Below are positions 16,078 through 42,806 of a stretch of DNA of 64,000 bases, piece by piece; position 1 is the stretch's first letter, and each line of letters begins with the position of its first letter. The position numbers and the translations under genes are program-made. The notes under the pieces are model-generated. The model was not told the DNA's origin, did not search any database, and worked only from the letters and a program-made list of their open reading frames with translations. The DNA comes from a virus (taxonomy: Duplodnaviria; Caudoviricetes), in IMG/VR virus record IMGVR_UViG_3300031994_000023, positions 64,001-128,000 of that record. The stretch is one strand, 5' to 3'.

Positions 16078-16563
16078 TTATAAATTGTATTGTGGATGAA
16101 TAATACTTCTTGCTCTTGATGTTAAGTCTAAATATTCTTTTAATTCGGGTGTGTCATTAATATTTTCTACTTCAAAGGAGCCGTCAAGTTTTTCTTGTAA
16201 ACTGTCCAGTTTACTTCTTGCTTCATTTAATAATGATTTTGTCTCATTATATACTGAGTTATTATATTCTGTGGTGATTAAGGGATGTTCTGCCACCCAC
16301 TGTGTATCTTGTTGTTGTCCTACTGTCCATTGATTTGTATTTTGTTGTCGTTGTAAATCCTGTTCTAAGAAATATAATTCATTTCGAAGGTTATTAACTC
16401 TTTCTTGTTGTTGTGTGTTGTTTCTTACGTTAGCCATATATTCTCCCCATGTGGATTCGGTTTGTGCACCACCTTCACTGTTGAGATATATTGCATAGTC
16501 ATCTATTCCTTCGTCGGTGTATGATGTTCCTCCACCTCCACCGCCTGTTCCTTTACTTGCCAT
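16078..16563 (-). CDS. MASK protein 6 (GIDDY leader), helical body
   Basis: MASKGTGGGGGGTSYTDEGIDDYAIYLNSE. Confidence 0.7.
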   Translation of the reverse strand: MASKGTGGGGGGTSYTDEGIDDYAIYLNSEGGAQTESTWGEYMANVRNNTQQQERVNNLRNELYFLEQDLQRQQNTNQWTVGQQQDTQWVAEHPLITTEYNNSVYNETKSLLNEARSKLDSLQEKLDGSFEVENINDTPELKEYLDLTSRARSIIHPQYNL

Positions 16564-16567
16564 GTTA

Positions 16568-17542
16568 TCATTTTATCTTTTTTAAATCTTTGAAGATTTG
16601 TTCTGCTTCCTCTCTTGTTTTACAATCCCATAGTCTGTTCCCCAATTTTGCAGATTCGGGGAATTCTTTCTCCCAACTATTATAATCCATTAGTTTCACA
16701 TGGTTTCCATTATATTCTGCATAAGTATCGGTAATATAATAACGGTTACCTACTCGTATGCGGGCATCGTCGTATCCGAGCCTATGAGAACCCACAACTT
16801 TCATGATTTCTGCAAGAGATTCTGTGTAATATCTAGGATTCGGTACGCCACGTACCATTTCACCACCGCTCTCATAGTTATATGTGTATGTTCCAGCATA
16901 AGTGGACACATTTTGTTTTTGTGTTTTCATTAATCTTCGGAAAGAGGGGTTGGAGGATAATGTAAATTCGTTTTGGTGTCCTCCATTATAGTCAAAGTTA
17001 TGGGTTATTTCATGAATAATAACACCCCTAACATCCCATGCATCATCTTTTTCATAGGATAAAAATGTTTTTTTGATTTCAACAATTCCATCTCTTTCTG
17101 GTCCATCATAATAACTACTCCCAGTTCTACCACTTAGTTTTACTTCTTTTAATGTCTCTTTGAACAAACTTGGTATTTTATCGATAGTTGTTAAGCAGTC
17201 TTCGAGGGTGGCTTGAGAGTGGGAACTCATACTTTCTTGTCTAAACCCTAATTTACAGTCTACAATGTATGTGCCAGTGTCTGTTTTTCCTTCGAATATT
17301 ACTGTTCCATCACTTTTAATTGTTTGAATAACCATATTCGCACTATTTGCTGATGAAAGAACATTCTGAATGTCTTCTTCTGAGAACTTTTTATATTTTC
17401 TCATTTTTTCGGCTTGTTCTTCATTGTAATTAAGTTCGGATGGTGTGAGAGTATGGTCGTCTTGTAAAATAGGGGAGAAATTAGTTTGATAGTCATCTAA
17501 TGTTAACTGGGTGTTTAATGTTATGTTACCTTTGCTCGCCAT
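16568..17542 (-). CDS. MASK protein 7: zincin metallopeptidase
   Basis: MASKGNITLNT; HEITH...VSTYA...TESLAE. Confidence 0.7.
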   Translation of the reverse strand: MASKGNITLNTQLTLDDYQTNFSPILQDDHTLTPSELNYNEEQAEKMRKYKKFSEEDIQNVLSSANSANMVIQTIKSDGTVIFEGKTDTGTYIVDCKLGFRQESMSSHSQATLEDCLTTIDKIPSLFKETLKEVKLSGRTGSSYYDGPERDGIVEIKKTFLSYEKDDAWDVRGVIIHEITHNFDYNGGHQNEFTLSSNPSFRRLMKTQKQNVSTYAGTYTYNYESGGEMVRGVPNPRYYTESLAEIMKVVGSHRLGYDDARIRVGNRYYITDTYAEYNGNHVKLMDYNSWEKEFPESAKLGNRLWDCKTREEAEQIFKDLKKIK

Positions 17543-17553
17543 GTTCCTTTTAT

Positions 17554-19284
17554 TTAGTCATTACTCCAGTATCCTTTGAAGTCGTTGGGATTTCTTATGT
17601 TTTTTATAACATCTGTGTTTTCACGATGGTCTTTTTCCTCTTCTATGGTTGGTACATTTGGTATCATTCCATAATTTTTGGTTTCATCAAGGTTGTTAGG
17701 GTCTACTGGACTTTCCATACTCTCAGGGTTAATGCCTAGTTGTGCCATTTGTAATTTTGTGGATATGTCATTCATCCACATTTGTTGCTGTTGTCTTTGT
17801 GTGTCAAGACTGTGTGATTCTTGACTCATTCCTGCATTGGCAAACATTAAACTTAATGGTGTTCCTCCGACAAAATATTCATCAAGGTATGGGTTGTCAG
17901 GGTCTGCCACTGCCCCTAATGGTTTTCCAAGGCTTTCACTTATTTGTCTTGGAGTCATCGCTCCCAAACTGAAAAGTATGCTCGCACTTTGAAGGTCACG
18001 GGCGTAGTCTCTTTTGTCAATATCTTCTATTTTGAATAACCATGAGAGGTATTTTTCCCCGTGTAAACGATAATATTCGTCACTGAGTATTTGGTTTACT
18101 ATGTCTTCATTTTTCTTTTTAATTGGTTGAATGATACTTGTGTTGTAAATGTTGGATGATTCTACACTAGTGTTTCCACCGAGACTCCCATTTATTGCCA
18201 TACCTATCCTGTATGGTGGAACTCCATGTGCACTTAGGACTTCGTCACGGTTGTCCGCTCGGTATAATCTGAAACTTGCCTCGTTACTTCCTCCTGCGTT
18301 TAGTTTTGTGAAACTTACATGCACGTTTCCTTCGGTGGATGGTACGAGCATGGCGAAGGCACTGTGAGGATTTTTAACGGCTTGTTCCATGTTTTCCTTA
18401 ATTTTGTATTTAAGGGTTTTTGTTTCATCATAGTCTGGGTCTTCTTCGTCCATCCCTGGGTCGAAGTCTCCTGTGACTGTTACTGCATATGAGGGCATTC
18501 CATAATTTTGGAAGAAACTACTGTTAAATCGGCTTCTTCCAAGGTCTCCGAAGATGGCTCTTATGACTGGTACTACTTTTGCACTTCCATATACTGGTGC
18601 GTGTGGTGCATAGTTTACTCCCCATATTAATTCGTTTGCTCTTTCGCTTGGGTCTAAACTGTTGTATTCGACTTGTTCTCCAGTGTCACAGTCGACATCG
18701 AATTTGACTCCATCGGGTGTGGTGTTTTTTCCATATAATATGAACCATCTATGTTTTTTTCCAACTCTTTGTAATACTCGTACTCCGTCTCGGTGTACTT
18801 TCATGTTGAATATGGGTGTGGGGTTAAGGTCGACTATGTCGCTTTCACTTGTGTTCCTTCTGAGAATTTCCATGCATCCACACCCGAGAGCTCTTTTATC
18901 ATAACAGAATCTGTATAATGCCGTGTTTATGGGTGTGTATAATTGTAGTAGGAAATCTTCTATGAATTGTTTCTGGTTTTTTGCTTCGTTAGATTCGTCT
19001 TCCACTTGGTTTCGTGGGACTAAACTGTACCCATATCCACTGGCGTCTTCCGCTACGACTTCGCAACATCTTCTATGGTATGTGTTGTTGTCTAATAATT
19101 CGCAGAGTCTTCTTAAATTATATTGGGGTCGTTTAAATTCGGCGTAATCGTATCCGTCATCATCGACTGCCTTCGTTCTTGCACGTGCTTCGTCCTCTTT
19201 GATAACATACCTGTCTAAGACACTTTTTTCTATTACTTCCCAGTCATTGTTTTTTTGGGTAACTACAAATTGTTCTATTGCCAT
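17554..19284 (-). CDS. Portal protein (PBSX-like)
   Basis: FFQNYGMPSY, EASF..YR..NRDEVLSAHGVPPYRIG...SLGG motifs. Confidence 0.9.
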   Translation of the reverse strand: MAIEQFVVTQKNNDWEVIEKSVLDRYVIKEDEARARTKAVDDDGYDYAEFKRPQYNLRRLCELLDNNTYHRRCCEVVAEDASGYGYSLVPRNQVEDESNEAKNQKQFIEDFLLQLYTPINTALYRFCYDKRALGCGCMEILRRNTSESDIVDLNPTPIFNMKVHRDGVRVLQRVGKKHRWFILYGKNTTPDGVKFDVDCDTGEQVEYNSLDPSERANELIWGVNYAPHAPVYGSAKVVPVIRAIFGDLGRSRFNSSFFQNYGMPSYAVTVTGDFDPGMDEEDPDYDETKTLKYKIKENMEQAVKNPHSAFAMLVPSTEGNVHVSFTKLNAGGSNEASFRLYRADNRDEVLSAHGVPPYRIGMAINGSLGGNTSVESSNIYNTSIIQPIKKKNEDIVNQILSDEYYRLHGEKYLSWLFKIEDIDKRDYARDLQSASILFSLGAMTPRQISESLGKPLGAVADPDNPYLDEYFVGGTPLSLMFANAGMSQESHSLDTQRQQQQMWMNDISTKLQMAQLGINPESMESPVDPNNLDETKNYGMIPNVPTIEEEKDHRENTDVIKNIRNPNDFKGYWSND

Positions 19285-41743: not shown

Positions 41744-42056
41744 GAGGAAATTTTTTTTATAGGAGAGCAGTTGGATTTGATAAAATTGATTTTTAAGAGT
41801 TAGTAATACTTCTTTTTCAACTATGCTCTAAAAGAACGGGCGTTGGGATAAAAGAGAAAATAAGAAACATTTAAATACTATGAAAACATATATAATAGTG
41901 TAGAAAAAAGAATATAAACCTTTTTTTTACCATAAACAATAATTCGTACAAAAAAAAGGCGAGATTACACTCACATAGTTTAACTTTTAAAAATAGTTTA
42001 GATTATAAACAATTATATTCTATACAAGGAAAAGTTAAAGAAGGGAGGTGATACCT

Positions 42057-42125
42057 ATGCCAAAATGGGATATGTATTATTACATAAACCATATTTTGAC
42101 ATTGTTGAACCACCTATTTAATTAA
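42057..42125 (+). CDS. 22-aa peptide inside nested inverted repeats (type I toxin-like)
   Basis: AAGGGAGGTGAT SD, then MPKWDMYYYINHILTLLNHLFN*. Confidence 0.5.
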   Translation: MPKWDMYYYINHILTLLNHLFN

Positions 42126-42281
42126 GAAGAAGTAATCCCGTTTAACTTTTGTATAATTATTGTTTTGTATCTCCACCTATATATACATTATTATTCTACA
42201 AACCTCTTTTTTTATCCAAACCTCGCCCCTTCGCTTTGAAAAAATTAATGAAAGATTGTCTTTTACCTTAATGTATGAGTT

Positions 42282-42806
42282 TTACCTTAATGTATGATTT
42301 ATTAAATTAGGGGAAGTTATTCTTGTTCTGCGTTCTGGTGCTTTAAGTTGTCTTCTTCCTCTTGCAGATTCTGTTGCCATAACTCCTTGAACATATGATT
42401 CGTATTGAGGAGCATTTTCGTAACGGAATGTTTCATATTCATAGATTTTGTCTAATAACTCTTCTTCCATCTCTGCTAATCTTCGATTATCCTCTACTCT
42501 TACTCTTTCACCATTTTCATATCTTCTGGTGAACCTATCATGGAGGATATTATCCCTTTCTATGAGTTGTTCATATATTTCTTTAGCCATATTTTGAAGA
42601 GTTTTTATCTCTTCTTTTTGTTTTACTCTGTCAAGGAAGTATGTTTCATTTAATGCATCTTTCCAGTCTCTTGTAACAACACTCTCCCTTGCTCCAGTAT
42701 CGTTATTATTTCTTGTTTCGGTGTTGAGGTAGGTTGGGTAGTCATCTATCCCTTCATCTATGAATGGTGCTCCACCACCTCCACCACCTCCTCCTTTACT
42801 TGCCAT
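42282..42806 (-). CDS. MASK protein 24 (GIDDY leader)
   Basis: MASKGGGGGGGGAPFIDEGIDDYPTYLNTE. Confidence 0.7.
   Translation of the reverse strand: MASKGGGGGGGGAPFIDEGIDDYPTYLNTETRNNNDTGARESVVTRDWKDALNETYFLDRVKQKEEIKTLQNMAKEIYEQLIERDNILHDRFTRRYENGERVRVEDNRRLAEMEEELLDKIYEYETFRYENAPQYESYVQGVMATESARGRRQLKAPERRTRITSPNLINHTLR

Follow-up and report, generated by a model that had tools for sequence, protein, structure and literature searches.

A glycine-rich N-terminal leader on seven dissimilar proteins of a gut virus, a candidate address for head cargo

Seven genes with one leader

We analyzed a stretch of 64,000 nt (the window), bases 64001-128000 of the single-contig virus record IMGVR_UViG_3300031994_000023 (141,779 bp; completeness estimate, 92%), in which almost all genes lie on the minus strand. 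Seven of these genes begin with a leader of ~29-30 amino acids (aa), here called the GIDDY leader, which consists of MASK, a run of glycines and the consensus [AT][SP][YF]xD[TE]G[IL]DDY[PA]xYLN[ST]. An earlier note on this DNA had listed the seven by their low coordinates, which on the minus strand are the stop-codon ends, and we keep those coordinates as gene names. All seven open reading frames (ORFs) are present on the minus strand, and their translations start as given there. A hidden Markov model (HMM) of the 18-column core (ASYxDxGIDDYPxYLN[ST]E), run on all six-frame ORFs of the 141,779-bp genome, matched exactly these seven at 41-46 bits (E ~1e-12), the next best score being 4.7 bits. 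Each gene in the following list was identified by its translation and by the core HMM.

16078..16563, minus strand: GIDDY gene 1, 161 aa, leader 16477-16563 (core HMM 41.4 bits)
27556..28071, minus strand: GIDDY gene 2, 171 aa, leader 27985-28071
28064..28540, minus strand: GIDDY gene 3, 158 aa from the MASK start, leader 28460-28540
29453..29860, minus strand: GIDDY gene 4, 135 aa, strain-variable, leader 29774-29860
33212..33709, minus strand: GIDDY gene 5, 165 aa, leader 33623-33709
36773..37285, minus strand: GIDDY gene 6, 170 aa, leader 37196-37285
42282..42806, minus strand: GIDDY gene 7, 174 aa, leader 42720-42806

The ORF listed for the third gene started at 28576 and carried 12 extra codons (MKWLNKRVIVEK); its true start is the MASK codon at 28540, and its first 11 nt lie within the end of the upstream gene (28530-29210). 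An overlap of 11 nt likewise joins gene 42282 to the Hjc gene at 42796-43188.

Sixteen leader columns are invariant among the seven proteins (M1, A2, S3, K4, four glycines, D17, G19, D21, D22, Y23, Y26, L27 and N28), and the glycine run is encoded by 6-9 Gly codons in succession. After YLN[ST] the bodies extend for 106-145 aa and, as the earlier note had described, share nothing comparable: pairwise BLAST found no similarity among them (best E 0.2), and full-length remote homology was not seen by Smith-Waterman alignment against shuffles either (mean z 0.84 over 21 pairs). Three of the 21 pairs (16078/42282, 29453/42282 and 29453/33212) reached z 2.7-3.5, faint scores that are suggestive of, at most, one common structural class. 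None of the bodies was recognizable as an enzyme, again in agreement with the note; Pfam and PHROGs gave no significant match, and the ESM Atlas held no usable neighbors for the 27556 and 28064 proteins. An AlphaFold2 (AF2) model of the 27556 protein left residues 1-44 unstructured, with the leader as coil at a predicted local confidence (pLDDT) below 50. The body was modeled as helical with low confidence, and the model as a whole (pLDDT 51) was too poor for a fold search.

A general tag in the head module

The start of the leader belongs to a tag of wider scope than the list in the earlier note. M[AST]SK starts 24 minus-strand genes, every one of them within 12293-42806, and no gene in the rest of the 141,779-bp genome has this start. 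These are 22 MASK starts, one MSSK (14610-15449) and one MTSK (25249-25839); by class, nine tags are MASKGNTTLN[ST]-like, five are MASKY, three are MASK followed by a Gly-rich stretch, and seven are GIDDY leaders. The tagged genes surround those for the head protease, portal and terminase and are interleaved with genes of the head module, and the M[AST]SK start is also absent from the capsid and portal genes. Nearly all tagged proteins have a pI of 4.2-5.9.

12293..38246, minus strand: span of the 17 other M[AST]SK genes, with untagged genes between them
Low coordinates of these 17, minus strand: 12293, 12919, 13566, 14610, 15486, 16568, 19692, 21208, 22131
The same, continued, minus strand: 23265, 24256, 25249, 29875, 33738, 34875, 36088, 37638
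9340..10506, minus strand: major capsid protein candidate (phrog_1623, E 1.8e-57)
10736..12229, minus strand: prohead protease (XkdF-type, S78_2) fused to an acidic scaffold-like region (Pfam PF14550, E 6e-13)
17554..19284, minus strand: portal protein (PF04860, E 1e-12; phrog_12)
25931..27451, minus strand: large terminase, TerL (phrog_38, E 3e-67)
42796-43188: archaeal Hjc resolvase

Several studies of the sheep and goat gut have yielded metagenomes with DNA near-identical to that of this virus. Because TerL is close to that of Methanobacterium virus Drs3 (58.5% identity), the resolvase is of the archaeal Hjc type and the virus occurs in the sheep and goat gut, a methanogen is the likely host. 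No match to pseudomurein endoisopeptidase (PF12386) was found in the genome; control genomes were equally without a match, and the result is hence uninformative on the host.

Under the common tag stand metallopeptidases, probable ADP-ribosyltransferases, and coiled-coil or helical small proteins. The two enzyme-like families are the following.

14610-15449, 16568-17542, 19692-20681, 21208-22083, 23265-24212, 24256-25212 and 33738-34868, minus strand: seven tagged HExxH paralogs
13566-14168 and 25249-25839, minus strand: tagged paralogs with invariant YR / SxS / QxE

The seven paralogs share HExxH...EN[LFW]A[ED], with H189, E190, H193 and E243 invariant. Their profile matched endothelin-converting enzyme 1 (ECE-1, M13) with both motifs aligned (E 0.005), while Pfam matches fell below threshold. 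On these motifs and the ECE-1 match, the seven are predicted M13/neprilysin-like gluzincin metallopeptidases. One of them, gene 16568, also had a single weak PHROG 'head morphogenesis' match (E 4e-4). In the 13566/25249 family YR, SFS and QxE are invariant in six sequences, and an AF2 model (pLDDT 62) was compared with the PDB by Foldseek. The top matches listed were all C3-, iota- or Certhrax-type ADP-ribosyltransferases with weak scores (best E 9e-3; Z 5.2, root-mean-square deviation 4.0, 141 residues aligned). Judged from these motifs and the model, 13566 and 25249 are probable C3-like ADP-ribosyltransferases, and they are a possible counterpart of Alt, the ADP-ribosyltransferase that phage T4 packages and injects. 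The 12293/12919 pair, which has RVE, KAFS and ExE motifs, may be similar to this family; PDB profile searches with both families gave no useful match.

The earlier note held that all enzyme bodies use the short tag. This is so among the tagged genes (seven metallopeptidases and two probable ADP-ribosyltransferases), but the more readily recognizable enzymes, QueC, Mom, Dcm and Hjc among them, are untagged. Untagged genes lying among the tagged ones encode QueC, two ParB_N proteins, Mom, a C5 methylase (Dcm), Hjc, a radical SAM protein, two YgjP-like proteins, a Tad2-like protein and TerL. The YgjP-like metallopeptidases are at 30216-30851 and 35408-35986 on the minus strand (PF01863, E 5e-19 and 4e-23).

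The GIDDY leader and the short tag have both ends in common. Each starts with MASK, usually followed by G, and each finishes with a hydrophobic residue and LN[ST] (TTLNS, STLNT and ITLNT in the short tag versus TYLNS and IYLNS in GIDDY). Relatives close to the 13566 family (P0120-P0122) start MASKGNRGNSLLNS, MASKGNSNTLLNS and MASKGKSSTLLNS; since their spacer from MASKG to LNS measures 3-6 residues, the distance between the two anchors appears to be naturally variable. Because the ends are shared, we infer that GIDDY is a short tag whose spacer has been replaced by a poly-Gly run and an acidic/aromatic 16-mer. A second binding epitope, as the earlier note had it, is plausible from the sequence; an insertion variant of the general tag is a better description of GIDDY than an independent second epitope.

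Other candidates were tried and rejected. Genes 15486, 22131 and 29875 are not counted as degenerate GIDDY copies, as a full-leader HMM aligned only the leader start, in 15486, at 8.7 bits. Motifs picked out by eye, namely N-glycosylation sequons in the short tag (the proteins are cytoplasmic) and EF-hand or dockerin calcium loops, did not fit, and the hydrophobic segment of an archaeal class III signal peptide is absent from the leader. The sequence ALDDYEF in the protease-scaffold protein recalls G[IL]DDY and might have been scaffold mimicry of the leader, but it received no score from the core HMM.

A possible address for head cargo

Among 1.84 billion representative proteins, 106 homologues from uncultured viruses matched a profile built on the seven metallopeptidases. 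Their N-termini fell into at least five classes (MASK..LNS; MGK[NS]R.S; ..LSLI[ST][RK]G; MVKY..IL..I..Y.EKC.R.G; ..KCSIIKSS), and a Gly/Ser/Thr/Pro-rich linker follows most of these tags. When bodies were compared with the first 25 residues removed, the best matches crossed tag classes (P0029/P0028, 51%; P0038/P0025, 43%; P0039/P0082, 44%; P0041/P0037, 40%), and metallopeptidases of other subfamilies bearing the same tag were 24-32% identical. These identities show several paralog subfamilies in at least two virus lineages, each lineage with its own tag on all of them, which is the pattern predicted for an address that co-evolves with a single receptor. It is the mirror image of one genome's single tag on many bodies. 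The tags thus behave as virus-specific addresses, with tag and body modular over evolutionary time. ENA/Logan contigs holding relatives reach 180 kb, with P0032 and P0059 encoded on 5.8 kb, P0029 on 17 kb and P0042 on 180 kb; scans of IMG/VR with P0032, P0024, P0020 and alignment A7, and of JGI with A7, confirmed no relative.

The earlier note had proposed a profile search for the leader across metagenomes. A protein search and a seven-sequence profile over 5.8 billion proteins returned only the virus's own genes and near-identical ENA fragments, and no relative was confirmed when IMG/VR and JGI metagenome contigs were scanned for the leader pattern, so that nothing beyond this virus and near-identical strains came to light.

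We tentatively read the GIDDY leader as a head-cargo address with an extra contact motif, resembling in function the capsid targeting sequence (CTS) of T4, and we give this reading slightly less than an even chance. The short tag, M[AST]SK followed by 3 to 6 residues and [hydrophobic]LN[ST], marks 24 late genes of the head module; in seven of them the spacer would have been swapped for flexible poly-Gly and the 16-mer [AT][SP][YF]xD[TE]G[IL]DDY[PA]x. Most likely the tag would bind a component of the assembling prohead (scaffold-protease, capsid interior or portal), and the head would then take in the tagged proteins and pass them, together with the DNA, to the next cell infected. The GIDDY motif would add a second contact that alters the binding site, affinity or copy number, and its bearers would form a subclass of small, acidic, mostly helical, fast-evolving proteins without enzyme features.

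An address is favored by the position of the tagged genes, which are confined to 12293-42806, from the protease-scaffold gene on, and flank portal and terminase. The occurrence of one tag on unrelated folds, the unstructured leader in the AF2 model and the Gly/Ser/Thr/Pro-rich linkers after the tags argue in the same direction, as does the precedent of T4, whose diverse internal proteins have only the CTS in common. The cross-lineage tag result strengthens the idea of cargo, and the interpretation in the earlier note is, overall, partly supported.

Several points weigh against this reading. The LN[ST] end common to both tags could be a coincidence. No cleavage motif is convincingly common to the leader and the capsid protein. 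Acidic cargo (pI 4.2-5.9 for nearly all tagged proteins) is less obviously suited to packing beside DNA, and it differs from IPII and IPIII, the internal proteins of T4, which are basic. Moreover, with GIDDY restricted to this virus and its near-identical strains, the extra motif allows no comparative test.

Within the leader, the candidate cut sites are after K4 and after LN, both equally possible from the residues around them. The protease-scaffold protein has LN[ST] at residues 72 and 220, the capsid protein and portal have none, and motifs ending in K form a series, with ESxK in the scaffold, ESYK in the capsid protein and ASK in the tag. At residues ~325-357 the protease-scaffold protein (10736-12229, minus strand) also has a run of ESEK/ESKK units spaced by Cys (ESEKCGGKESEKCKGKESKKCVNKESEKS), which is preceded by a Gly/Thr-rich low-complexity stretch.

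A more elaborate proposal, which we regard as doubtful, is a two-tier code in which MASK...LN[ST] admits proteins to the prohead and GIDDY sorts the small acidic subclass by site, stoichiometry or ejection order. If it were true, the virion of a methanogen virus would carry an ordered arsenal of ~24 pre-made effectors, including metallopeptidases and ADP-ribosyltransferases, and related uncultured viruses would use the same scheme with private tags. Packaged and injected proteins are the first strike of phages against host defenses, and we know of no such case among the tailed viruses of methanogens. A readable tag would list the virion cargo of an uncultured rumen virus from sequence (here seven metallopeptidases, probable ADP-ribosyltransferases and about a dozen unknowns), and private tags on orthologous bodies would make tag and receptor findable by co-variation. 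Short tags that carry foreign proteins into capsids are useful as tools, as the T4 CTS has been, and the GIDDY class would be the first hint of one virus using more than one grade of such tag.

The internal proteins of T4 are diverse and fast-evolving and have only a short capsid targeting sequence in common (PMC3012670). As with the CTS of IPI, IPII, IPIII and Alt (PMC3012670, PMC9026906), a short N-terminal peptide is here the sole feature common to diverse proteins. Both viruses have a prohead protease and a scaffold, with the tagged genes in the head or late module, and in both the cargo, putative in our case, includes an ADP-ribosyltransferase-like enzyme together with small, fast-evolving, strain-variable proteins. 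The two differ in that the protease here is of the XkdF/S78_2 type (PF14550), fused to the scaffold, and not of the gp21 family; in that no LxE-type cut site is common to tag and capsid protein; and in the 24 tagged genes, the acidic cargo and the probably archaeal host. GIDDY, as a second and longer class of leader, has no described counterpart in T4. We know of no sequence resemblance between the tag and the T4 CTS, and we take the system, from its sequences, to be an analogue and not a member.

The ejection proteins of the giant phages SPN3US and phiKZ (PMC7411985, PMC5694885) offer a further parallel, with many cargo genes, including paralog families, near the head genes, and a prohead protease that processes head-internal proteins which are delivered to the host. 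Their propeptides are defined by a cleavage motif, unlike the one shared N-terminal tag here, and their packaging was shown by mass spectrometry, whereas packaging of the tagged proteins here is a prediction. MuF polymorphic toxins of temperate phages (PMC5576092) and polyvalent proteins (PMC5512222) are similarly modular, with a conserved N-terminus, thought to bring effectors (including metallopeptidases and ADP-ribosyltransferases) into the head, and variable effectors behind it. In MuF proteins the address is a folded domain (PF04233) of at least ~100 aa, in contrast to the peptide of 11-30 aa here, and MuF effectors are domains of one polypeptide instead of separate small genes. No Pfam match to the MuF domain (Phage_Mu_F) was found in the tagged proteins scanned. 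Encapsulin cargo-loading peptides, short and on flexible Gly/Pro/Ala-rich linkers, dock unrelated cargo inside an HK97-fold shell; they are mostly C-terminal, and the shell is a nanocompartment, not a virion. To our knowledge they have no sequence similarity to the tag.

Strain variation, leader DNA and alternative readings

Strain contigs from three DNA runs and one RNA library were compared over 26000-44000; the RNA-library contigs cover parts of the tagged region. Strains X4 and X8 retain 27556 and 28064, X4 also retains 33212 and 36773, and X8 also retains 42282, at 95-99% identity (~97% for 36773 in X4). Gene 29453 has been lost twice by separate events. In X3, 29586-29889 is skipped, which removes the leader and 91 codons and leaves the remainder out of frame; in X4, 29398-29848 is replaced by 52 letters. 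An X3 contig (goat gut, depth 28) joins 42627 to 38279 and cuts gene 42282 after codon 60. A strain variant of 27556 in ENA (P0001) has an unchanged leader and seven amino acid changes in the body, which between strains evolves faster than the adjoining gene. The GIDDY bodies are thus accessory and fast-changing, and swapping was not seen in the compared strains. Apparent joints near 36.7-37.3 kb were discarded as cross-mapping from the 16078 locus, outside the compared stretch.

DNA-modification cassettes are strain-variable as well. The block absent from the X3 contig (38280-42626, 4.3 kb) holds tRNA-like, Tad2-like, Mom, ParB_N, C5 methylase and methylase-fragment genes, and an X8 contig joins 32276 to 30600, removing the QueC region. 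The tRNA call by ARAGORN (38423-38500, minus strand) has an irregular anticodon loop and no amino acid given. Its neighbor at 38567-38803 (minus strand) encodes a 78-aa protein that matches the Tad2-like Thoeris anti-defense domain (PF11195, E 3e-26) and lies next to Mom and the odd tRNA-like gene.

The GIDDY block could instead be the working part of a fast-evolving paralog family, a short linear motif with a binding partner in the host or the virus (for which it might be an inhibitor or decoy), displayed on a variable helical carrier, with MASK alone as the sorting signal; we think this unlikely. It would account for a 16-mer conserved far above all other parts of the proteins, for bodies that are alike in size, acidity and helicity with a few pairs near z 3 (against the mean of 0.84), for the tandem or near-tandem copies (27556/28064, and 16078 beside 15486) and for the rapid change of the 27556 body relative to its neighbor. 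However, the motif stands at a constant N-terminal distance, after MASK and flexible glycine, and ends in the general LN[ST], which fits an address better, and the 95-99% identity of several bodies between strains is not that expected of mere carriers.

A quite improbable alternative is that the seven GIDDY proteins are cognate, immunity-like inhibitors of the seven tagged metallopeptidases, co-packaged to silence the enzymes until delivery. The counts are equal, the GIDDY proteins are small and acidic, like many immunity proteins, and two of their genes lie directly downstream of a metallopeptidase gene (16078 by 4 nt after 16568-17542, and 33212 by 28 nt after 33738-34868). The other five of the seven pairs are not adjacent, though, gene 29453 is lost in two strains, and nothing links individual pairs.

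At the DNA level the leader copies are 69-85% identical, and exact runs do not exceed 22 nt, the longest being mostly the ATGGC.AGTAAAGGA start. The leaders of 27556 and 29453 had been described as identical over 28 aa with synonymous differences, and we find residues 1-28 identical, with 13 of 87 leader bases and 10 of the 27 codons of shared residues differing. Across the leaders, codons for the same residue were identical in 209 of 393 comparisons, against 164 expected from genomic codon usage; synonymous sites are mostly randomized, and codon identity is modestly over chance. All 22 MASK genes listed encode the MASK serine with AGY, compared with 41% AGY among serine codons genome-wide. 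Since AGY cannot become TCN without passing through a non-serine codon, this indicates a single origin of the tag, and the codon pattern as a whole indicates strict selection on the peptide, not on RNA or DNA.

These figures bear on the earlier note's further proposal that the leader DNA is a ~90-nt homology anchor for recombinational exchange of C-terminal bodies, to which we now attach very little probability. A tag of single descent on unrelated folds, together with orthologous bodies under different tags, does speak for past recombination of tags and bodies, and GIDDY genes lie at or near strain-variable junctions. The leader is nevertheless unfit as a present-day anchor because its copies are too diverged: identity is 69-85%, the 22-nt run is mostly the start region, and codon identity exceeds chance only modestly. 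When bodies were compared between strains, as had been suggested, X3, X4 and X8 showed retention or deletion only. Deletion ends do not coincide with the leader/body boundary, and no foreign body was found behind a GIDDY leader in the contigs of the compared strains. A cassette exchange of the Rhs/CDI-like kind differs in the same respect, as no DNA-conserved junction with alternative bodies was seen in the compared strains.

We give almost no credence to a signal in RNA or translation (an initiation-region element, a regulator site or a G-quadruplex from the GGN run): the ATG GCA AGT AAA start is nearly invariant in tagged genes and the Gly run is a run of GG dinucleotides, but the leader codons for Ala, Gly, Tyr, Asp, Thr and Leu vary in the third base about as codon usage predicts, descent accounts for the AGY-only serine, no motif is common to the regions upstream of tagged genes, no such start is found in the module's capsid, portal and terminase genes, and relatives retain the peptide despite differing spacer lengths.

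Many MASK starts are closely preceded by a run of 8-10 A (for example in 12893-12942, 20682-20731 and 36712-36761), where a Shine-Dalgarno-like GGAG is weak or absent. In many tagged genes codon 5 is GGA and is followed by A, giving GGAA.

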